Shown here: in pieces, positions 3,704 to 43,305 of the stretch
Layout: the number at the start of each line of letters is the position of its first letter
How positions within the stretch are numbered: the stretch's first letter is position 1
Virus record (IMG/VR): IMGVR_UViG_2767802057_000001
Span: 3,839 to 67,838 of that record
Strand: one strand, 5' to 3'
Length of the DNA stretch: 64,000 nt
Origin: a virus
Taxonomy: Duplodnaviria > Caudoviricetes
The notes under the pieces: model-generated
What the model was told of the DNA's origin: nothing
The model's database searches: none
What the model saw: only the letters and a program-made list of their open reading frames with translations
Position numbers and translations under genes: made by a program

Positions 3704-4576
3704 TCAGGCTCCCTGGGTTCCGGTGATGTCGACGTCGACCTTGACGACGGCTTCGGCGATCGCCGTCTGCACGGCGGCGACCACGGTTGCCGTGTCGACG
3801 TCCTTGCCGAGCTGCCCGGCGAGCGCCTTGATCGCGGCGGTCTGGGCGGTGAGCTGGGTGTTCAGGTTGTTCAGGATCGCCCAGGCGTCCTGCTTGCCCC
3901 TGCCCTTGTAGCCCCACGTGCCGAACTGCACGAGACTACGGATCTCCTTCAGTTCCTGCGCCTGCTCGGGGGTCATGTCGTCCTCCACGTTGCTCGGGAA
4001 CGCCGGCCAGCTGCCGGGGTCTTGGTGGTCGTTTTCGGGGACGTGGGCGTGCGCGTACCAGCCGGCGGCCTTCTCCCAGATGGCCTCGCTGCGGTGCGCC
4101 GTGAAGTCGAAGGGGCGGCCCATCGGCCAGACGTCGGGTACGCCCCAGCTCTTGACCCAGGCGTGCAGTTCGTCCCAGCCCTTGCAGGGGGTGTCGGCGA
4201 GCTTCGGCCAGACCTTGCCGTCCGGGGTGCGGCAGTACGGGAAGAACAGGGCCTCGATCTGGATAACGACGGAGCCTGCCCGGTTCGTCCTAGTTCCGCC
4301 GGACGCGTCGACGAGGGACTTGGAGCGGGAGTTGGCGGGCACGAACTGCGCGATGCGGCCGGTCCACGGGTCCCACAGGAGGTGCGGGGCGACTGCCTTG
4401 CCGCTGCCAGAGAAGTAGCTGCGCAGGCTCGCGAAGCTGACCAGGTCGGCAGGCTTGGCCGCGGTCGCGTTCCGGTCCCACGTGATGTGCGCGATCGCCT
4501 TCGCTGGACCGCCGTCGGTCGGCGCGTGGTCCCCGATGTCGAGGCGCTCGGCGCCCGGCATCCACAGGTCGGGCAT
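3704..4576 (-). CDS. Endolysin, N-acetylmuramoyl-L-alanine amidase type
   Basis: MPDLWMPGA...AIAHITWD...PHLLWDP...IQIEA...AHAHVPENDHQDPG: amidase_2-like Zn ligands; precedes holin. Confidence 0.85.
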   Translation of the reverse strand: MPDLWMPGAERLDIGDHAPTDGGPAKAIAHITWDRNATAAKPADLVSFASLRSYFSGSGKAVAPHLLWDPWTGRIAQFVPANSRSKSLVDASGGTRTNRAGSVVIQIEALFFPYCRTPDGKVWPKLADTPCKGWDELHAWVKSWGVPDVWPMGRPFDFTAHRSEAIWEKAAGWYAHAHVPENDHQDPGSWPAFPSNVEDDMTPEQAQELKEIRSLVQFGTWGYKGRGKQDAWAILNNLNTQLTAQTAAIKALAGQLGKDVDTATVVAAVQTAIAEAVVKVDVDITGTQGA

Positions 4577-7886: not shown

Positions 7887-8903
7887 GTGCGCGTCCACTT
7901 CTGGTCGGCCGACTCGGCAGGTTCCTCGTTCTATCGGGCGTACCTGCCGGGGATGAGCCTGCAGTGGCTCGGCCATACCGTCTCCGTCGGCATGCGGCTC
8001 CCGCAGGACTGGCCGGCCGCAGACGTCGTCGTCGGCTGCCGGGTCGCGCAGCGTGACCCGTCGCTGATGTGGCGGAAGCTGAAAGACGAGGGGAAGCGGC
8101 TCGTCCTAGACCTGGATGACGACTACTTCCACATCGACCCCAGCAACGCGCACGCCCGCCAGGTCTGGGACACGGAGATGCTGGGCCGTCTCGTCCACAA
8201 CATGCAGGTCGCGGACCTGGTCACCTGCTGCTCCGAGCCGCTCGCCGCCGTGCTCCGCGACTACGCCGAGGACGTGCGGGTCATCCCGAACGGTCTGCCC
8301 GCCCAGTACCTGGGCCAGCCTCGGGACTACACGGCAGCTGACCGGCCGCTGTTCGTCGGCTGGGCCGGCACGTCGTCCACGGTCGCCGAGCTCCCCGAGG
8401 CGGTGCGCGCCCTGAACCGGATCTCGCAGTACCCGCGCCCGGGCGGTGGGGTGCAGGTGCGGATCGTCGGGATCAGCCCCGAGCACGCCATGAGCCTGGG
8501 GTTGCGGGGCCGGCGGATCGGTGCGCTGGGCTGGGTGGAGCGGATGGAGCACTACCTGCACGCGGTCGCCGAGTGGGACGTGTGGTGCGCTCCGTACCGG
8601 GACACGCAGTTCAACAGGTCGAAGTACCCGACGAAGTTCCTCGAGGCGTCGATCCTGGGGATCCCGTTGATCGCGTCGGACATCGAGCCGTACCGGCGGG
8701 TGATCCGGCATGGGGAGAACGGGTTTCTGGTCCGCTACGAGCACGAGTGGGGCAAGCACCTCAAGCAGTTGGCGGACGATCCGGGGCTGCGGCAGCGGAT
8801 CGGGATGGCCGCGCGCGCGGAGGCATCGGGGTCGATCCTTCAGGCCATCAACGTCCAGTGGGACGCTGTCCTCACCCCGGCGAGTGAGAGGACAGCGGCA
8901 TGA
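7887..8903 (+). CDS. GT-B fold glycosyltransferase (GT4-like)
   Basis: VLDLDDDYF, VIPNGL, VGWAGT, APYRDTQFNRSKYPTKFLEASILGIPLIASD, HGENGFLV donor-binding signature. Confidence 0.88.
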   Translation: MRVHFWSADSAGSSFYRAYLPGMSLQWLGHTVSVGMRLPQDWPAADVVVGCRVAQRDPSLMWRKLKDEGKRLVLDLDDDYFHIDPSNAHARQVWDTEMLGRLVHNMQVADLVTCCSEPLAAVLRDYAEDVRVIPNGLPAQYLGQPRDYTAADRPLFVGWAGTSSTVAELPEAVRALNRISQYPRPGGGVQVRIVGISPEHAMSLGLRGRRIGALGWVERMEHYLHAVAEWDVWCAPYRDTQFNRSKYPTKFLEASILGIPLIASDIEPYRRVIRHGENGFLVRYEHEWGKHLKQLADDPGLRQRIGMAARAEASGSILQAINVQWDAVLTPASERTAA

Positions 8904-29446: not shown

Positions 29447-29486
29447 GTCACCTTCGAATCAAAGGTAACTTGCTGTCGCAGCCTTA
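29447..29486 (-). promoter_or_regulatory. Late-motif copy upstream of portal
   Basis: GTCACCTTCGAATCAAAGGTAAC near-palindrome; minus strand TAAGGC-17bp-TTTGAT-TCGAAGG. Confidence 0.55.
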
Positions 29487-31006
29487 GAAACTTGCCTCGG
29501 CTTGCTCGGGATGAACCGGCGCACCGCGCTCCCCACCGCGTCCACAAGGTCATCGTGTGGGGCCTTCGGGAAGGCGCACATCTGCTCCTCCAACTCCCGC
29601 AACCGGCGCGCGTGCAGCACCCGGCCGCGCTGGTAGTGGCCAAGCACGCCCTCGGCCCGCACGACCTTCGGCTCCGACTGCGAGACGGTCTTCACCCGCA
29701 CTGGCATGTGGTGGAACACGGCCTGCCAGACGTCCTGCCCCTGGTTGACCTCCAGGAGGATCAGCCCGATCCGCGGCCACTCGTCCAGCAGCGCCAGCAC
29801 CCGCTCCCGCAGCTGCTCGCCGGGCGGGATCTTCACTGCGAGCGCCTCGTGCACGGTGCAGCGGCGGGCCTGCGCCGACCAGGAGACCACCGCCAGCCCC
29901 GTGAAGTCGCTGCCCTTCTTCGCGGTCACCGCCGGGTCGATCGACAGCATCATGTGCGTGATCGGGTCCGCACCCTCCGGGCCCGGGTAGCGGAAGTCGT
30001 CCGGCGTCCACAGCGCACCGTCCGCGCCCATGGGGTCGTTGGCGTAGTTCTTCGCGAACGAGCGGGTGTGTTCGATGCTCTTGAGGTAGGTGAGCGGCCA
30101 CTTCGCCGGCCACACGCTGCGCTCGTAGCCGCCCACGGTCTTGATGATCGGCGGCGTGTAGTGGGCGGCGAACCCTTCCTCGGCGATCCAGGGGGCGGTC
30201 TCGACGGCGCGGGCGTGCTTGACGAGCTGGTGGACGATGCTGCCCGGCATGGTCACCGTCCCGGAGATCACCACGCGGGCGTACACGTTCAGCGGGAGGA
30301 TCGCGTCGACGAGGGTGGTGCGCCGTTTCCGGGCCAGGTCAAGGGAGTAGGAAGACTCGTCTGGTTCGATGTCGTCACACAGGATGAGGTCGGGCCGGCG
30401 CTCGCCGACCTTCATGCCGAGGTTCGAGGAGTCGATGCCGCGCGCGGCAAACACGAACCCGTTGTCCGCGATGAACATGCTCTGGGTGTCGGCGACGTTC
30501 GACCCGGACGGCCGCTTCGCCGGGGAGCAGAGATCCTTGAAGTCGCGCCGCAACAGCTCGTTGCCGTCGATCTCCTTCTTGAACGACGAGAGATGCGTCT
30601 CTGCCTGGGTGGCCGACGCGGCGAACGCTGCGGCGAACCGGACGTGACCGTGCGCGGCAGCCCACATCGGCAGGATCAGAAACCACCACGTGGACTTGCC
30701 CATATTGCGTGGGGCGATGTATGCGTCCCGGTTCTCGCCCGGCGCGGTTGGCGGGCGTACCCAGCGCCGGGCGGCGCGGCACCAGTCCAGGTGCGCGTCG
30801 CCGAACGTGATCAGGCCCTCGGCGTCCCGGAGATGGTGCCGCAGGTAGACCAGGGCGAACAGCATCGGGTCCAGGCGGGTGAGGGTGCGTCGGCCTTCCG
30901 GGTCGGCGAGGAGCCGGGCGTCGAACTGGGCGAGGTAGGCGTTGAGGTCGAACGACTCGGCGTCCAGGCCCTCGAGGTAGCCGGGCGCGCGGACCGCGGT
31001 CCCCAC
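29459..31006 (-). CDS. terL: Terminase large subunit
   Basis: APRNMGKST Walker A, LILCDDIE Walker B, SIDPA...SDFTG and HDDLVDA nuclease motifs. Confidence 0.93.
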   Translation of the reverse strand: MGTAVRAPGYLEGLDAESFDLNAYLAQFDARLLADPEGRRTLTRLDPMLFALVYLRHHLRDAEGLITFGDAHLDWCRAARRWVRPPTAPGENRDAYIAPRNMGKSTWWFLILPMWAAAHGHVRFAAAFAASATQAETHLSSFKKEIDGNELLRRDFKDLCSPAKRPSGSNVADTQSMFIADNGFVFAARGIDSSNLGMKVGERRPDLILCDDIEPDESSYSLDLARKRRTTLVDAILPLNVYARVVISGTVTMPGSIVHQLVKHARAVETAPWIAEEGFAAHYTPPIIKTVGGYERSVWPAKWPLTYLKSIEHTRSFAKNYANDPMGADGALWTPDDFRYPGPEGADPITHMMLSIDPAVTAKKGSDFTGLAVVSWSAQARRCTVHEALAVKIPPGEQLRERVLALLDEWPRIGLILLEVNQGQDVWQAVFHHMPVRVKTVSQSEPKVVRAEGVLGHYQRGRVLHARRLRELEEQMCAFPKAPHDDLVDAVGSAVRRFIPSKPRQVSKAATASYL

Positions 31007-32277: not shown

Positions 32278-32922
32278 CTACGGGCAGGTCTCGTCAACCT
32301 TGACTGCGTTCAGGCTGACGGGCTGCCCGTTCAGCTTGGTTCCGGCAGCTGGCGTCTGCGAACACACCTTCCAGTTGGATTCGATCAGCACCATGCGGTC
32401 GTTGCCAGCGGCGTCGTTGACAGTGATCGACGTGCTGGAGTCGAGGGCCTGCCGTGCGGCTTTGACGCCCTTCCCGACGAAGTTGGGCATCGTCCCGCCT
32501 GCCGCGGACGGGGCTTCCTGGTCCTTCGCGGGACAGACCTCGGCGAGCTTGACCGTGCCGAAGTCCAGCTTCGTGTCGGTGGGTTTGCTGCCGCCTGCCT
32601 TGACGTTTTGGGAGCAGACCTTCCAGTCGCGGTCGAGGATCTGCATGCGGGCGCGGCCGGAGGAGTCGTGCGAGGTGAGGTTGTAGAAGCCGGCTGCTTG
32701 TGCTGCGTCTTGGGCTGACTGCAGTCCCATGCCGACGAAGTTGGGGACGGTCTTGGTTTCCGTCTTGGCGTCATCCTTGCTGCTGGTGCTGCTGGTGCTG
32801 ATGGCCGTTGGCTTGGTGCCCGAGTTGGCCGGCTCGTCGTCTCCGCCGTTGATGGCGCTGCCGATGGCGCCGATGACGATGACGCCGCCCACGATGCCGC
32901 CGATGACTTTCCAGTTGGCCAT
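32278..32922 (-). CDS. Membrane-anchored protein with two PASTA domains
   Basis: TM helix, Ser/Thr linker, two VPNFVG...WKVCSQ repeats. Confidence 0.85.
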   Translation of the reverse strand: MANWKVIGGIVGGVIVIGAIGSAINGGDDEPANSGTKPTAISTSSTSSKDDAKTETKTVPNFVGMGLQSAQDAAQAAGFYNLTSHDSSGRARMQILDRDWKVCSQNVKAGGSKPTDTKLDFGTVKLAEVCPAKDQEAPSAAGGTMPNFVGKGVKAARQALDSSTSITVNDAAGNDRMVLIESNWKVCSQTPAAGTKLNGQPVSLNAVKVDETCP

Positions 32923-34400: not shown

Positions 34401-34907
34401 TTAGATGAGTCGTGCGTGGGCGAGTTCGGCGGCGCGGCCGAGGTAGAGCAGCGGTAGCCGCGGGCCGCGCTGGCTGTCGTTCCAGCTGGGGATCGTCTCG
34501 GCGTCGGCGAAGTCCCGGCGGATCGCTTCGAGGAGCACAGCGCAGGCGTCGTCGGCCTGGTCACGGCTGGCAGCCACGGCTCGGATCGCTCCGATGAGGC
34601 AGACGGCCCCGGCTTCGTCCCGCAGCTGCCCGGTGCACCAGCCGCCCTCGAGCCGGGCCTGCGCCTGGTACAGGACTGCGGCGAGCGGAGTCGTGTACGG
34701 GCAGGGCGCGGCCGCCGGGATGATGAGCGGCGGGGCGACGACCTCAGGCAGTGGCTCGGCGGCCGGCAGGTGGGCGGTGTTCACGTCGATGGCGAGGTGG
34801 GCGAGGTAGATCCGCTCGTCCATGACCGCGCCCACCATGGCGAGCCGCGCGTCCAGGTCGAGTTCGACCGGGGTGGCGGTCGTCGTCTTGGTGGGCGCCG
34901 TGGTCAT
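34401..34907 (-). CDS. DUF6197-like protein
   Basis: GWCTGQL...VCLIGAI...IPSWND motif. Confidence 0.65.
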   Translation of the reverse strand: MTTAPTKTTTATPVELDLDARLAMVGAVMDERIYLAHLAIDVNTAHLPAAEPLPEVVAPPLIIPAAAPCPYTTPLAAVLYQAQARLEGGWCTGQLRDEAGAVCLIGAIRAVAASRDQADDACAVLLEAIRRDFADAETIPSWNDSQRGPRLPLLYLGRAAELAHARLI

Positions 34908-35677
34908 GCGGCCTGCTTCTGGGCTTTGCCGCTGCCGGTGCACTCACCGCAGACGACGATGAGCTGCTGCCCGCCGAACGCGCTGTAGATCTTGCCGTTG
35001 CCGGCGCACTGCCAGCACAGGCCCTTGGCTATGGCCTTGCCGACAGGCATGGCCTTGTTCTGCTTGATCCACTGCTCGTCGGTCATGCCGGAGTCGGTGA
35101 CGGTCTTGGATACGGCGGGCGCCTGCTGCGGGGCCGGCTGCGCGACTGCTTCGTTGGCCTGCGCGTACCAGGCGCCGCCAACGGTCTTGCCGCCGTGCTT
35201 CTGCCGCTCGTGGGTGCGGAGCGCCTTGGTGGCCTCGCGTGCGTCGCGGTAGCGGGGCTTCTCCTTCTTGCCGCAGGGGCAGGCCCAGCCGATCAGCCCG
35301 GTGTTCTTGTCGGGCCCGAACCGGCTGGCCTTGTAGACGGCCCAGCGGCTGGCCGTCTGCTTGGTGGGCTTGGCGGGGCAGGGCTTACTGCCGGTGAACT
35401 CGCCGTTCTTGCCCTTGGTGAAGATCTGTCCGTTGCCGTGGCAGGTGGGGCAGCCTTCGTGGGTGGCGCGGAGGATGGCGGCGTCCTTGCGGGAGCGGAC
35501 GGTGTCGCTGTGGGTGTCGAGGTGGGCGGCGACGTGCAGCATGAGTTTTGCGGCGAGCCGGGCGTGCGGCGGGCCGCCCTTGGGGATCTTGACGCGCTTG
35601 GCGGGGTGCTTGCGGGTGCTGGGCTTCCGGCGGGCTTGGGTGGTGGTGCGGCGGGCGGGCTGGCGCTTCGCGGGCAT
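34904..35677 (-). CDS. Basic protein with DnaJ-type CxxCxGxG motifs
   Basis: CPTCHGNG, CWQCAGNG, CGECTGSG; GAGGAG RBS before ATG 35677. Confidence 0.75.
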   Translation of the reverse strand: MPAKRQPARRTTTQARRKPSTRKHPAKRVKIPKGGPPHARLAAKLMLHVAAHLDTHSDTVRSRKDAAILRATHEGCPTCHGNGQIFTKGKNGEFTGSKPCPAKPTKQTASRWAVYKASRFGPDKNTGLIGWACPCGKKEKPRYRDAREATKALRTHERQKHGGKTVGGAWYAQANEAVAQPAPQQAPAVSKTVTDSGMTDEQWIKQNKAMPVGKAIAKGLCWQCAGNGKIYSAFGGQQLIVVCGECTGSGKAQKQAA

Positions 35678-35722
35678 GATCGAGGCTCCTCGGCCGTGCG
35701 TTCGGTTTGTGATGGTTTGCGT

Positions 35723-35878
35723 GCTGCTCGGCTGGTGCTCGCTGGTGCTCCGCTGCAGGTCAGAGCCGCTCAAGGTGGCGCTCGGCGACTGCTCGGGGTT
35801 TCGGCGAGCAGTTGTGCGAGCAGTGGGTTGAGCAGCTCTGACCTGCGGTCGAGCAGTGTCGAGCACCTCGCGAGCAGT
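35723..35878. repeat. clt-like array of 8-bp repeats (candidate TraB recognition sequences)
   Basis: CGAGCAGT at 35805, 35817, 35850, 35871, reverse copy at 35788; variants at 35829, 35860 and (reverse) 35723, 35734, 35744, 35765, 35777; begins 7 bp past traB stop. Confidence 0.8.
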
Positions 35879-35885
35879 GGACTTT

Positions 35886-37889
35886 CTAGGTCAAAGCGGT
35901 CAGCGCTTCGATCTTGTAGCCGCGCGGGTTCTCGAAGCCGTCAATCGCGCCGATCGGCACCGGCGCGCCGACCCCGACGTCCCGGAGCAGCTTCCGCAGC
36001 GTGGCGACAGTGAGGTCGCCGTACAGCTCCGGCTTCAGCGTGATGAGCGCTTCAGCAAGGGCCTCGGTGCGGATCCGGTCCGCGCCCGCATCCGCCATCA
36101 CCTCGATGGCGTCGAACACGACCTGCCGGTCACCGGAGATCAGCTTCTGCTCCGCTCCCCCATCGGCCAGGTGCAGCAGCCCGGCGGCGGCAAGGGTGTC
36201 GCGGTCGAACCACGGTCGGCCAGCATCTATGCGATCGGTGACCGCCTGCTTGATCGCCTCGTTGCTGTGCTCGTTCCAGCCGTACAGCAACGGCCGGTCA
36301 AGGCCAGGGCCCTTGACATAGGACTGGCCGGCATCGTTCTTGATCTGCCTGTTCTGGGCGGGGACGAGCCGGTCGGGGCGGAAGCCCTTGGCGGCGGCGC
36401 CCTGACCGAAGACGATGCGGATGTCGTCCCAGCGGGAAGCGAGCATGACCTGCAGGGTGAAGGTGTCGGCGATCGCGTCACCCATGGCGTCGGACGTGGC
36501 GTCCTGGCCGGCCGCGATCGGGTAGATACCGGACTGCTTACCGAGGCGCAGCAGCTCGATGAACAGCTCCTTCGCCTTCGGACTGAGGTAGATGAACTCG
36601 TCGACGAACGCGAAGATCGCCGGGCGCTCCTTGGTGGCCACCCAGGTGTCGCCCATGCCGAGCCGGTTCCGGACGACGTTGCGGCCCTTGGCCATCTTCA
36701 CCAGGTTCTCCAGCCACTCCTCGCAGGCCTTGTTGCCGCGGATCGGCGGGACGGCCATGACGCCTTCGAACTCGCGGAGCCCGTCCTTGACCGGGTCGAG
36801 GTCGAGGGCGATCGCGTTGTGGCAGGCGGTGATGACCTCGGCCAGGTCACGCAGGACACCGGTGGTCTTGGCAGCACCGGAGACGCCGATGACGAGGATG
36901 CGCAGCCCTTCGAGGACCAGGTCGAGGCCGGAGCCGTCCATGCAGCGGCCGAAGTTGTGGCTGTCGGCGATGTCGAGGCTGTTCGGGGCGTGGACGGCGG
37001 GCTTGGGCATGTCCTCGAACGGGTTGCCGGTGACGAGGCGGAGCACGATGTGCGCGGACTGCTGGGGGTCGGGGTCGATGAGGGTGCCGCCGTGCTTGAG
37101 GTTGAAGTGGACGTCGAGCTGGTCGGCGACGGCGTTGACCTTGCCGGGGGTTGCGCCCTTGAGGATGACGTCGATCTCCCAGAACTTGCCGCGGAAGCCG
37201 AGCGCCCGGATCTGCCGGGCTTCGATCCCTTCCCAGGCGAGCGCGCGGGACACGCAGTCCTCGACCATTCCGGGCGATGTGCACACGGCGAGCGGGAACG
37301 GCTCGTCGCTGTTGGGGTCGTCCTGGTCGGCGATGATCGCCTGCGGTGCGAGCTCGGGCCGGTGGGCACGGTAGCGGCCGTAGGCGGTGATGCCGGCGGC
37401 CAGGGCAAGTCCGGTGCCGGTGGGCGGGATCGCCGCGGCCGGGCCGATGGCCTCCATGTGGGCTTCGGCGACGAGCGCCCACCAGCCAGTCAGGTTGAGG
37501 CCGGCGGTGATGCCTCCGACCCAGCCGAGGAGCTTCCACCGCTTCTTGCGGACTTCGTCGACTTTGTTCCAGTCGCCTTTCTTCTGCATGCCGCCGATGA
37601 CCTCTTGAAGGTCGTGGGCGCGCACGTACCGCCAGCCGAGGAAGCAGACGGCCTTGAGGCCGATACCGAAGTAGCGGGCGGAGAGGCCGGCCGCCCGTCC
37701 GGTCGTGGCGGCCACCACCATCGCCGCGGAGCTGGTCTTCGCGAGGACGGGGGTGTGCGGCTCGTAGGGGACGACGATGCCGGGCGGGATGTCTTCGTCG
37801 GCGAGGTCGTCGGGCACGTGCAGCTCGCCGGGAATGACCTTGGTCAGGTCCCAGTCGTGGGGCAGCTCGGGGTGCGCTTCGGTGGTCAT
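35886..37889 (-). CDS. traB: TraB/TraSA-like FtsK/SpoIIIE conjugative DNA translocase
   Basis: N-terminal TM segments, GVSGAAKT Walker A, IFAFVDEF Walker B, LLRLGKQSGI...AGQ, GQSYV, C-terminal wHTH-sized domain. Confidence 0.85.
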   Translation of the reverse strand: MTTEAHPELPHDWDLTKVIPGELHVPDDLADEDIPPGIVVPYEPHTPVLAKTSSAAMVVAATTGRAAGLSARYFGIGLKAVCFLGWRYVRAHDLQEVIGGMQKKGDWNKVDEVRKKRWKLLGWVGGITAGLNLTGWWALVAEAHMEAIGPAAAIPPTGTGLALAAGITAYGRYRAHRPELAPQAIIADQDDPNSDEPFPLAVCTSPGMVEDCVSRALAWEGIEARQIRALGFRGKFWEIDVILKGATPGKVNAVADQLDVHFNLKHGGTLIDPDPQQSAHIVLRLVTGNPFEDMPKPAVHAPNSLDIADSHNFGRCMDGSGLDLVLEGLRILVIGVSGAAKTTGVLRDLAEVITACHNAIALDLDPVKDGLREFEGVMAVPPIRGNKACEEWLENLVKMAKGRNVVRNRLGMGDTWVATKERPAIFAFVDEFIYLSPKAKELFIELLRLGKQSGIYPIAAGQDATSDAMGDAIADTFTLQVMLASRWDDIRIVFGQGAAAKGFRPDRLVPAQNRQIKNDAGQSYVKGPGLDRPLLYGWNEHSNEAIKQAVTDRIDAGRPWFDRDTLAAAGLLHLADGGAEQKLISGDRQVVFDAIEVMADAGADRIRTEALAEALITLKPELYGDLTVATLRKLLRDVGVGAPVPIGAIDGFENPRGYKIEALTALT

Positions 37890-39238
37890 CACTGGTCCTT
37901 CTTCGCAGCGGCGTTGCGGGCGGTAATGGAGGCCTGACGACGGGCCACGGACACGTACTTCACGTCGCCCTTGGTGCGCACTCCGCGACGCGCGGGAGGG
38001 TTGTAGACGCGGGGCTGCTTGGTACCCGGCACTTGCGAAGCACGCTGCGCGTTCGCGGTCTTGCTGAGGGTGTTGACGGGGGTGCCGGTGAGGGCAGATT
38101 GGACGCGCGCTTCCGCCTTCAGGCGGGAGGTGATGGACTCGATGGACTCGCCCGGGTCGGTGCCCTTGATGTTGCGGTAGGCGCGCTTCCAGACGGCCTC
38201 GTCGTTCGGTGTCGAACCGACCGCGGCGGCGATCTTCACGGCCTCGTGCCACACGTCCGGGAACTCTCGCTGACGATCCTCGGTCAGCTGCCGCAGCTTG
38301 ACCTCTGCGTCCTTCCGTGCGGCCTGCTCCTCGGCGGCGCGACGCTTCTCCTCGGCGGCCTTCCGGGCGGCCTCGGCGCGCTCCGCCTTCCGCTGTGCGC
38401 GACGTTCGCGACGGGACAGCTTGCCATCCAGCTTCCGGATCCGGCCGTGCTCGTGGAGATCCCAGACGCCGGGGCCGGCGATGCTGGCGAATGCCGTACC
38501 GATCGCGGTCGCCGGGTCGAAGGCGTGCATGCCGTGCCAGAGGTTGATGCTCGCGGCGATGAAAGCGAGCAGCCAGGCGATCAGCCGGTAGTGCCAGTGC
38601 GGCCGGTGGTCGTCGACCGCGGCACGGGCACCCTGCAGAACCACCCACGCGCCGCCCTCGAGCATGAACGGCGCGACCAGCAGCCACTTCGCGTGCGGGT
38701 TGTAGAAGGCGGCCATCTGCACCGGCAGGGCGACAACGGCGCAGACGACCGCGAAGCCGAGCGCACACCTCGTCCATACGTTCGCGGTCTTCTGCCGCTT
38801 CTCCACCTGCTCGGCCTCGGCCTGCTGCTGCTCGGCGGCCTGCCGGTCGGATTCCTCGCGGGCGCGGTCGGCGTCCGCCTTGCGCTTCCTGCTCTCGGCG
38901 ATCCGCGCCTCGGACGCGGCCTCGTCCTCGCGAGCCTTCCGCTCCAACTTGTCGTTGTTGAGGCGCAGCCGGCGGGCCTCTTCCTCCGCCTTGGCGCGGA
39001 TGGCGTCGGCCTCGGCCTCGGCGCGCAGGCGCTGCTCCTCGGCCTCGGCCCAGGCTCGGGCGCGGATCGCCTCGGCCTCGGCCTGCGCGATCAGGTCGCT
39101 CTCGGGCTGCGCGTCGTCGGGCGAGGCGGGGATGCTGGGCTCGGTGGCGGGGGTGGCCTCTATGGGCTGCCAGTCCCCCAGCACCTGCAGGGCCTGCGGC
39201 CGGGCGCGGCCGTTCACCTTCGGCGGGCTGGCAGTCAT
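37889..39238 (-). CDS. Spd-like membrane protein (DUF2637-like)
   Basis: Long Ala/Glu coiled coil, four TM helices, second coiled coil; TGATG-coupled to traB. Confidence 0.7.
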   Translation of the reverse strand: MTASPPKVNGRARPQALQVLGDWQPIEATPATEPSIPASPDDAQPESDLIAQAEAEAIRARAWAEAEEQRLRAEAEADAIRAKAEEEARRLRLNNDKLERKAREDEAASEARIAESRKRKADADRAREESDRQAAEQQQAEAEQVEKRQKTANVWTRCALGFAVVCAVVALPVQMAAFYNPHAKWLLVAPFMLEGGAWVVLQGARAAVDDHRPHWHYRLIAWLLAFIAASINLWHGMHAFDPATAIGTAFASIAGPGVWDLHEHGRIRKLDGKLSRRERRAQRKAERAEAARKAAEEKRRAAEEQAARKDAEVKLRQLTEDRQREFPDVWHEAVKIAAAVGSTPNDEAVWKRAYRNIKGTDPGESIESITSRLKAEARVQSALTGTPVNTLSKTANAQRASQVPGTKQPRVYNPPARRGVRTKGDVKYVSVARRQASITARNAAAKKDQ

Positions 39239-39261
39239 GGCTGGTCTGTCCTCTCTGGGTT

Positions 39262-39459
39262 TCAGCCGCGGCGAGCGGCGTGGTGAGCGTGGAGGGTGCT
39301 GATCAGGTGGTCGAGGACGTACATCGCGGCGAGGGCCGCGATGATCGCGCTCAGCAACGGCACCGGACGCGGCGCGTCCAGGGAGGCGGCCACTCGGCCG
39401 ACGGTGATCCCGAACACGAGGGACGGCACGAACGTGGCGACCCAGGCCAGGAAGCACAT
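39262..39459 (-). CDS. Small two-TM membrane protein
   Basis: Two hydrophobic segments in 65 aa. Confidence 0.6.
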   Translation of the reverse strand: MCFLAWVATFVPSLVFGITVGRVAASLDAPRPVPLLSAIIAALAAMYVLDHLISTLHAHHAARRG

Positions 39460-39460
39460 G

Positions 39461-39664
39461 TCACTCCCCCCGCCTGCGCCGGCTGCGCGTGGACCGGTAG
39501 CCGAACGGGCCGGGCAGGTCCATCGAGGTGGTGGTGCGGCCAGTGCTGGACCAGGTCCGCTTCGGCCCGTGCTTGGGGCCGACGGTGATCGACCAGGACT
39601 TGGCGTTCAGGTTCAGGCGGACCCCGGGCAGGATCCGGAACGACCTACGGAACGTGATCGGCAC
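39461..39664 (-). CDS. DUF4236-like small basic protein
   Basis: FRRSFRILPGVRLNLNAKSWSITVG signature. Confidence 0.75.
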   Translation of the reverse strand: MPITFRRSFRILPGVRLNLNAKSWSITVGPKHGPKRTWSSTGRTTTSMDLPGPFGYRSTRSRRRRGE

Positions 39665-39675
39665 TGCGTGTCCTC

Positions 39676-39969
39676 TCAGACGGTCGCGCGGCGGGCGCGG
39701 TGGAATTCGCGGATGAACTCGTCGGTCAGGCCGGAGCCGATGGCCGCCCCGACCGGGCCGATCCCGGTGACGGACGCAGCCCACAGCTCCAGCCAGGCGG
39801 CTCGGGTGGCCAGGTAGTTGATGACGGGACGGGCGGAGCGCACGACGAAGACGAGCGCGCCGAGCCCTGCCATCACCAGCAGGGCCAGAGTCTTCAGCGC
39901 CCACCGGCCCGCCCAGCGGGCCGCAAGCCGCAGCCGACTGGGCTTCGCGGTGATCAGATACGGGCGCAT
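39676..39969 (-). CDS. Small membrane protein
   Basis: GAGG RBS; central TM helix. Confidence 0.65.
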   Translation of the reverse strand: MRPYLITAKPSRLRLAARWAGRWALKTLALLVMAGLGALVFVVRSARPVINYLATRAAWLELWAASVTGIGPVGAAIGSGLTDEFIREFHRARRATV

Positions 39970-42265: not shown

Positions 42266-42901
42266 GTGGACGGACAGCAGTGGACCGGGCGGAAAGCAGC
42301 CTGGCTCCAGGACGCATTCGAAATGACCCAGGAGGCGTTCGCGGGAAAGCTCGGGGTTTCGGTTCGCAGCGTCGCATCGTGGCGCGCGAACCCAGACATG
42401 ATTCCCCAGCAGGAAACGCAGCGCATCCTGGACACGACTTTAGCGATGGCAGGTGATGCGGTGCGTCGGCGGTTCATCCATTTGTCGCGGACGGCTATAG
42501 CGCAGCCGGAAGTTCAGGCGCTGCGGGTGGCGATCGCCGTGGTTCGCCGCGGAGGTGACGTGCTGCTCGTGTGCAGGCAGGACGGCGAAGACATCGCGTG
42601 GCAGTTCCCGGCCGGCATCGTGAAGCCGGGCGGCTCGGCATCGAAAGTCGCGGTGCGGGAAACCCTGGCTGAGACCGGCGTGCACTGCACGGTCCGCGAG
42701 CATTTGGGTGAACGACTCCATCCCCACACCCACGCAATGTGCGACTACTTCGTTTGCGATTACGTGCATGGCGAGGCGATCAATGGGGACAGCTCGGAGA
42801 ACGTCGCCGTGGCCTGGGCTCCGATAGCGGAGCTCGCCCGCTTCATCCCCACCGACCGCATCTACCCGCCGATCCTCGACGCCCTGGAGGCGACCGTATG
42901 A
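42266..42901 (+). CDS. XRE-HTH fused to degenerate Nudix domain
   Basis: MTQEAFAGKLGVSVRSVASW HTH; Nudix box GIVKPGGSASKVAVRETLAETGV lacks two conserved Glu. Confidence 0.85.
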   Translation: MDGQQWTGRKAAWLQDAFEMTQEAFAGKLGVSVRSVASWRANPDMIPQQETQRILDTTLAMAGDAVRRRFIHLSRTAIAQPEVQALRVAIAVVRRGGDVLLVCRQDGEDIAWQFPAGIVKPGGSASKVAVRETLAETGVHCTVREHLGERLHPHTHAMCDYFVCDYVHGEAINGDSSENVAVAWAPIAELARFIPTDRIYPPILDALEATV

Positions 42902-43305
42902 CCACCGAGACAAAGAAGCCCGACGTCAGCGCCGCCATCATCACGGACGGAGGACGTGTCCTCATGGTGCGGCGCCGCGTGAAGGAGGGCGAGCTCAGCT
43001 GGCAGTTCCCGGCCGGCGGCGTCGAGGACGGGGAGACGGCGGAGCAAGCCGCAGTGCGGGAAACGCTCGAGGAGACCGCCTTGACCGTGAAGGCGGTGAA
43101 GTACATCGGCGACCGGGTTCATCCGAAGACCGGCAAGTTCATGGCCTATACCGCGTGCGAGGTTGTCGACGGCGAGGCCCGGGTCGCGGACGCCGAGGAG
43201 CTGGACCTGGTGGCGTGGGTCGCGCACGACGAGATCCCCGACCTGGTGCCCTACGGCCTTTTCGAGCCGGTGCAGGCTTACCTGGACGACGTGTTGCCGC
43301 ACTGA
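42898..43305 (+). CDS. Nudix hydrolase (MutT/Pif-like)
   Basis: GGVEDGETAEQAAVRETLEETAL Nudix box; ATGA overlap. Confidence 0.9.
   Translation: MTTETKKPDVSAAIITDGGRVLMVRRRVKEGELSWQFPAGGVEDGETAEQAAVRETLEETALTVKAVKYIGDRVHPKTGKFMAYTACEVVDGEARVADAEELDLVAWVAHDEIPDLVPYGLFEPVQAYLDDVLPH

Follow-up and report, generated by a model that had tools for sequence, protein, structure and literature searches.

A clt-like array of opposed repeats behind a TraB/FtsK-like translocase gene in a Streptomyces siphophage provirus

Results

Layout of the locus

The window analysed here, a stretch of 64,000 nucleotides, comes from a 67.8-kb IMG/VR provirus record whose G+C content is 69%. The phage is a siphophage of Streptomyces, with a terminase large subunit gene at 29462-31006, portal and capsid genes, and a gene of tape-measure size encoding 1545 amino acids; DNA methylases and a PD-(D/E)XK nuclease are encoded further upstream. 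No near-identical DNA was found in the phage collection. Between the early genes and the terminase, with six genes separating it from TerL, lies a 156-bp array of short repeats (35723-35878). It fills the intergenic space between two minus-strand genes, a gene for a TraB/FtsK-like translocase (traB below) and a gene for a 257-aa protein, and ends about 45 nt before the start codon of the latter. The features of the region are as follows.

34904..35677, minus strand: downstream gene, 257 aa, with a basic N-terminus and zinc-ribbon-like CxxC motifs; follows the array in all relatives
35704..35721, minus strand: box conserved as CAAACC-N4-CACAAAC on the gene strand, situated between the array and the following gene's ribosome-binding site
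35723..35795, minus strand: traB-distal arm; its six repeats face the other way (CGAGCA-type when read on the gene strand) and lie at 35723, 35734, 35744, 35765, 35777 and 35788
35753..35766, no strand assigned: conserved core, distal copy, CTGCAGGTCAGAGC on the plus strand; fills the two-turn gap between arm repeats 3 and 4
35796..35804, no strand assigned: centre of symmetry, 9 bp, GGGTTTCGG on the plus strand; this block of columns is poorly conserved in the family alignment
35805..35878, minus strand: traB-proximal arm; its six repeats are ACTGCTCG-type when read on the gene (minus) strand and lie at 35805, 35817, 35829, 35850, 35860 and 35871
35836..35848, no strand assigned: conserved core, proximal copy, CTCTGACCTGCGG on the plus strand; inverted relative to the distal copy
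35886..37889, minus strand: TraB/FtsK-like dsDNA translocase gene, 667 aa, called from the GC3 frame plot, homology and a structure model
37889..39457, minus strand: upstream gene, 522 aa, homologue of the DUF2637 protein encoded ahead of TraB on pFP1-type plasmids
39464-39904, minus strand: DUF4236 gene, conserved upstream of traB
42266-43302, plus strand: pair of neighbouring Nudix-domain genes (Pfam, 1e-16 and 5e-23), beside the transfer block

The stop of the 522-aa gene overlaps the traB start by one base, and its DUF2637-like product matches the plasmid homologue with blastp E-values of 1e-14 to 7e-16. The 257-aa protein displays a weak local similarity to the pFP1 protein encoded at the same position. 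Nudix proteins are known from the conjugal immunity of AICEs (Pif of pSAM2). A PASTA-domain protein with a weak match to a superinfection-exclusion PHROG is encoded on the minus strand at 32281-32922, between the transfer block and the terminase.

Architecture of the array

The array consists of twelve helically phased repeats, six facing one way and six the other across the 9-bp centre. Exact copies of the 8-mer CGAGCAGT occur at 35805, 35817, 35850 and 35871 on the plus strand and at 35788 on the minus strand; the whole window holds 15 copies against 3.4 expected, a number reached in none of 100 shuffles. Four of the six repeats in the proximal arm are perfect, the degenerate ones being TGAGCAGC at 35829 and CGAGCACC at 35860. 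The distal arm is much more degenerate: it retains a single perfect 8-mer (35788), while the repeats at 35723, 35734, 35744, 35765 and 35777 carry one to three mismatches, and the arm is effectively an array of GCTC(G/A) cores. When the GAGCA core is counted, the 156 bp contain ten occurrences against 0.45 expected (Poisson P ~6e-11), strictly segregated by strand, with four on the minus strand followed by six on the plus strand; CGCTC variants at 35767 and 35779 bring the count to six and six. The core start-to-start spacings are 11, 10, 21, 12 and 11 on the left and 12, 12, 21, 10 and 11 on the right. These spacings place the repeats on one helical face, and the plan of the array is mirror-symmetric.

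At its centre (35788-35812) the array reads ACTGCTCG-N9-CGAGCAGT. The inverted pair 35755-35773 / 35828-35846, 19 bp long with one mismatch, extends in a repeat search to 50-nt arms of 78% complementarity. An earlier note on this DNA had described six opposed 8-mers on each side, this centre, the 19-bp repeat with its one mismatch, and a start 7 bp from the traB stop (TAG, 35886-35888); the core counts, positions and spacings bear the description out, but the distal arm has only one perfect copy.

Ten copies of CGAGCAGT lie outside 35715-35885, where codon-order shuffles give 3.1 (P 0.003); eight of the ten are on the minus strand. The shorter word CGAGCAG occurs 45 times outside the array against 35 in codon-order shuffles that leave dicodon effects uncorrected (P 0.02), and the non-cognate TGAGCAG is not enriched in the window outside the array. 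The surplus of CGAGCAGT could represent dispersed clt-like words or a dicodon effect.

The translocase

The 667-aa product matches the FtsK/SpoIIIE-like family phrog_12531 (7e-67), and its family profile matches the FtsK structure 2IUU (E 1e-13). Its AlphaFold2 model has a pLDDT of 88, and the best Foldseek hits are the FtsK motor structures 2IUS/6T8O (E 2e-16), the alignment to 2IUS covering about 415 columns. A search with Pfam FtsK_SpoIIIE and NCBIfam returned nothing at E<0.01. Walker A (GVSGAAKT) is located at residue 335 and Walker B (FAFVDE) at residue 426. In the main family, Walker A at 335-342 reads GVSGAAKT or GVSGSAKS, with Ala in place of the usual last P-loop Gly; more distant relatives have a Walker A with GK.

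The C-terminal region, approximately residues 586-667, is modelled as a winged helix of the order H1-b1-H2-H3-b2-wing-b3 (pLDDT 87). Nearly all of its top 50 structural neighbours in VIA-align are winged helices (Z 5-6.4), with no specific match to FtsK gamma seen among them, and Foldseek gave no significant match for this small domain. Two N-terminal stretches, 66-84 and approximately 118-170, are moderately to weakly hydrophobic and are candidate membrane segments. The protein shares 31% identity with the pFP1-type plasmid translocase over 70% of its length, the C-terminus included. Judged by homology and the structure model, it is an FtsK-family pump, an FtsK-type motor followed by a winged helix.

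Relatives and plasmids with the same plan

Relatives at 57-82% identity were collected from nineteen IMG/VR contigs (at first ten), nine Streptomyces/Catenulispora genomes and seventeen metagenome contigs. The homologous gene is followed by an array built in the same way in more than 45 relatives, which include prophages, metagenome contigs and conjugative plasmids, and every relative that extends far enough carries it. The shared plan runs through three repeats, ACCGCAGGTCA(G/C)AGC, three further repeats and a short centre, and then through the mirror image of these elements; next come the CAAACC-N4-CACAAAC box, the ribosome-binding site and a gene homologous to that for the 257-aa protein. 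The distance from the traB stop to the next ATG is 207-209 nt throughout the main family. The CAAACC-N4-CACAAAC box is kept in the main family, in families at 30% identity, and in pFP11 and pZL1.

The conserved block comprises the DUF4236 gene, the DUF2637-like gene, traB, the array and the zinc-ribbon gene. The DUF4236 and DUF2637-like genes are kept upstream of traB in 22 relatives; beyond the zinc-ribbon gene, genes such as the DUF6197 gene at 34404-34943 are present in only one or two. The relatives differ in their terminases and in the genes outside the block, and their TerL genes are unrelated. The block is therefore a separable mobile module within mosaic temperate phages.

The repeat word varies by lineage: CTGCTCG, CTGCTCA, CTGCTA, CCCCTCG and CGTCT are observed among the relatives. 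A scan of IMG/VR with the pair of conserved cores alone returned 34 mirror arrays with at least nine different repeat words, adding CCGGGAC, GTCGTGAC, CCGGAC, CGGTACG, CCGTGAC and GCCTGAC. A TraB-like ORF detectable by BLAST ends 23-60 nt upstream of the array in 24 of the 34, and a long ORF with the same RGY-type tail is found in another four. In the CGTCT/AGACG class (L013, L029, L030, L182, L183) the winged helix cannot be aligned with that of the main family; this class has a single central core, GCAGG(T/C)CAGACG, fused to the first reverse repeat, rather than one core per arm. The lytic BE-cluster phages (NootNoot) carry an FtsK-like gene without a winged-helix homologue and have no array.

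The layout of gene, array and gene is also present in plasmids free of phage genes, namely pFP1, pSLUN2, the NBC_00285 plasmid, pFP11, pZL1 and pSG5. In the first five of these, traB is followed by a gap of about 220 nt containing forward repeats, reverse repeats and the core, and then by the next gene. In pSG5, three forward copies of CCCGGAC and two reverse copies of GTCCGGG flank CCTGACCTGCG. In pIJ101, on the reverse strand beside korB, three G(A/C)AAC direct repeats, GCAGGTCAGAC and an imperfect inverted repeat are found. According to PMC3583192, the minimal pIJ101 clt measures about 54 bp and combines three direct repeats with an imperfect inverted repeat that is essential, and by its match to this description the site with GCAGGTCAGAC would be the tested clt. 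The earlier note had treated mirror symmetry as a departure from plasmid clt loci; this view does not hold, as pFP1, pSLUN2, pFP11, pZL1 and pSG5 share the opposed halves and the core. On sequence comparison, the mirror plan is a property of the known clt kind and no peculiarity of phages.

The repeat word follows residue 645 of the winged helix

Differences in the repeat word are accompanied by differences in the translocase. Loci with CTGCTCG have P or S at residue 645, in the context PV-x-(I/L)G, those with CTGCTCA have T and those with CTGCTA have Q; about 45 loci show no exception. In the 696-column TraB alignment a single column separates the CTGCTCG sequences (n=15) from the CTGCTCA sequences (n=8), and it is the one with P or T at 645. 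The rule extends to relatives at 30-45% identity, where L045 and L117 combine P with CTGCTCG and eight loci combine T with CTGCTCA. Metagenome loci fetched after the rule had been stated obey it as well: P or S is found with CTGCTCG, T with CTGCTCA, and Q, in two distinct sequences, with CTGCTA. A second residue appears in one locus (L019), where R656N (NPNG for NPRG) goes with CCCCTCG. The model puts the two residues in strands b2 and b3, at the wing base. Roughly 20 of the 120 closest homologues have other combinations at 645/656, namely S+N, A+N and A+R (P0003, P0009, P0032, P0081, P0117 and P0119 among them).

The codon for residue 645 lies less than 100 nt from the array. The motor-domain tree requires at least four well-supported changes of motif class, and residues three to four codons away from 645 (A/S, V/A) are imperfectly associated with the word, L026, L034, L041 and L168 carrying GAGSPVP. 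Linkage alone is thus a poor explanation, and hitch-hiking of the 645 codon with the array is unlikely. The DUF2637-like, DUF4236 and zinc-ribbon proteins contain no discriminating column, and a binder other than TraB among these three neighbours was rejected on that ground.

A core shared across unrelated repeat words

The core CTGACCTGCG occurs once in each arm, and these are the only two good copies in the whole window. It is kept in all relatives and in pFP1, pSLUN2, pFP11, pZL1, pSG5 and pIJ101, and it is identical across families with unrelated repeat words and winged helices. At one position the two copies co-vary: among 22 sequences the pair is G-C in nine, C-G in eight and broken in five. 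As the core is constant while the winged helices differ completely, the variable reader of TraB does not explain it, and the core must be there for some other purpose, be it a conserved partner, a structural feature or a point of entry.

The core or its complement is located at 2999, 6887 and 8121 in pIJ101 (L166) and at 4458 in pSG5 (L165), and it is also found in pFP11 (L185), pZL1 (L186) and L003/L162/L163. Outside its clt, pIJ101 contains two exact 12-mers, GCAGGTCAGAGC at 2999 and GCTCTGACCTGC at 8121. A search of the literature text for TGACCTGC or GCAGGTCA together with Streptomyces returned primers only and no description of the motif. The sps palindrome bound by SpdA2 (PMC4170104) was considered as the core and rejected, being a different motif.

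Discussion

A probable recognition locus for the adjacent translocase

TraB is known to bind clt through a winged helix-turn-helix at its C-terminus and plasmid-specific 8-bp repeats (PMC4447253, PMC3583192). The phage array adjoins the 3' end of traB and consists of twelve short element-specific repeats, and co-variation points to the winged helix as the source of their specificity. The adjacent protein, for its part, combines a predicted FtsK-type motor and winged helix with homology to plasmid Tra proteins and a neighbourhood of conjugation type. The array is therefore probably the cognate clt-type recognition locus of the TraB-like, FtsK-family translocase encoded beside it. The earlier note had proposed a cognate TraB loading site, whose halves might load translocases both ways or form a cruciform. 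The part of this proposal that concerns recognition stands, strongly supported by the conservation of the array in more than 45 loci, by its co-variation with residue 645 and by the finding that no neighbouring protein co-varies; for the loading itself we infer binding, one hexamer per arm, opposed translocation and a virion-independent spread of the prophage.

The mechanism we envisage is as follows. Each 7-8-bp repeat (CTGCTCG on the gene strand) would be read by the winged helix of one TraB subunit, with the wing base setting the variable bases: P645 would correspond to the last base, and R656 to the TG two to three bases upstream. An FtsK-type hexamer has six subunits, as many as an arm has phased repeats, and each arm might nucleate one hexamer. 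Since the arms are inverted, the rings would be oppositely oriented, facing opposite ways and pumping both flanking DNA arms, and the circular dsDNA form of the phage or plasmid would pass through hyphal membranes or septa as a loop. A loop-extrusion picture has been drawn for TraB, without a loading mechanism (PMC11571958). This fuller scheme, with a double-hexamer platform around the universal core CTGACCTGCG, reeling of the loop and capsid-free spread of a temperate Streptomyces siphophage family between hyphae, is put forward as a tentative and rather doubtful extension. The degeneracy of the distal arm fits poorly with two equivalent loading sites.

Weighing other functions of the array

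Apart from recognition for transfer, the array might be an operator, bound by the TraB winged helix or by another regulator, that controls the zinc-ribbon gene and those following it or serves in autoregulation of tra, with no transfer origin involved. Its position suits such a role, as it fills the intergenic region to about 45 nt before the downstream start, is followed by the conserved box and the ribosome-binding site, and keeps a fixed distance to the ATG; control of the kil-kor style is moreover typical of tra operons (PMC4447253). The region contains no promoter-like hexamers, however, and twelve phased sites over 156 bp appear excessive for an operator. The same architecture is also found where clt function was mapped, beside tra in pWTY27, and the core recurs in the site taken for the pIJ101 clt. 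An operator without a transfer function is thus unlikely, and the two roles are not mutually exclusive.

Less likely still is a function of the nucleic-acid structure itself, either a hairpin of the traB transcript, which could stabilise its 3' end, serve in processing or attenuate the downstream gene, or a DNA cruciform, with the repeats as by-products of the complementarity between the arms. The array folds far beyond its shuffled versions (DNA, -54 kcal/mol, z -6.9; RNA, -97 kcal/mol, z -9.5), RNAalifold finds 45 pairs in a consensus of 22 sequences, 16 of them with compensatory changes, and recognition of a long inverted repeat by its structure was proposed by the authors of the pWTY27 study, in that case for RepA and iterons (PMC3583192). 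Yet the pairs do not extend beyond repeats and core, all spacers being internal loops in every sequence, and it is the specificity base of each repeat that carries the compensatory changes. The same word appears six times per arm and all twelve copies change together, for which a stem has no need, and these changes track protein residue 645. Twelve sites changing with a protein residue favour recognition by a protein, although a cruciform or hairpin may form. The region lacks a U-tract or terminator consensus, and the only Rfam match, to a plant miRNA hairpin, scores 34 bits and stays below the threshold of 268. An intrinsic terminator or sigma-70 promoter was rejected, with no consensus in the array region, and so was a known RNA family. 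The remaining reading, another DNA transaction of the phage such as a packaging site (pac/cos), an iteron replication origin or a partition centromere, is very improbable. Phased iteron-like repeats with inverted halves do resemble theta-plasmid origins (iterons of pWTY27 and pFP11; PMC3583192) and centromeres, and the location between early genes and terminase would be suitable. The array travels with TraB-like genes rather than terminases, however: the TerL proteins of the relatives are unrelated, six genes lie between array and TerL in the phage itself, pFP1-type plasmids have the array and no packaging genes, and BE-cluster phages, whose FtsK-like gene lacks the winged helix, have no array. 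There is also no adjacent Rep or Par protein, and no neighbouring protein co-varies with the repeats. A packaging site was accordingly rejected.

Comparison with known systems

A cognate clt-type locus of the phage translocase has close counterparts on plasmids. Plasmid clt loci likewise consist of short element-specific repeats beside tra or traB, read by the winged helix of an FtsK-like hexameric pump (PMC4447253, PMC3583192), and in pSG5, pFP11, pFP1 and pZL1, too, traB is followed by forward repeats, a centre and then reverse repeats, with the CTGACCTGCG core in common. Compared with these, the phage array is set in a complete tailed-phage genome and is unusually regular, with six plus six repeats and one core per arm. 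Specificity here seems, from sequence co-variation, to be located at the wing base (645, 656), whereas helix alpha-3 is reported as the specificity element of the pSVH1 TraB (as cited in PMC3583192). A precedent for the phage setting is pZL12, cited as a Streptomyces plasmid-phage with transfer functions (Zhong et al. 2010, J Bacteriol 192:3747, in PMC3583192 and PMC4487206); going by its description, on which this comparison is based, it is an autonomous plasmid that has ParAB, whereas the record studied here is classed as a provirus.

The chromosomal systems FtsK-KOPS and SpoIIIE-SRS also pair a hexameric motor with a winged helix that reads an oriented 8-bp word for loading and direction, and the opposed polarity around the array centre recalls KOPS converging on dif. 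KOPS are dispersed chromosome-wide, whereas the repeats here form one packed array, with the cognate word mildly enriched elsewhere. A further parallel for inverted sites is SV40 large T antigen, for which inverted GAGGC pentamers assemble two hexameric rings in opposite orientation. This is an analogy only, as T antigen is an unrelated protein and a helicase at a replication origin rather than a dsDNA pump, and double hexamers at the phage array are conjectural.

The type of site, clt, is already known; what the array adds is its setting in a tailed phage and the single-residue code. How TraB finds its plasmid and how a ring pump moves circular dsDNA are only partly understood, and the accessible literature gives the clt plan only as 'direct and/or inverted repeats'. 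The natural variants of the wing (P, T or Q; R or N) track single-base changes in twelve sites and provide a testable recognition code. The opposed six-repeat arms and the core, found from pIJ101 to the phages, suggest a common ground plan of clt. The module is present in many mosaic prophages, which hints that a second, capsid-free way of spreading may be open to the tailed phages of mycelial bacteria.
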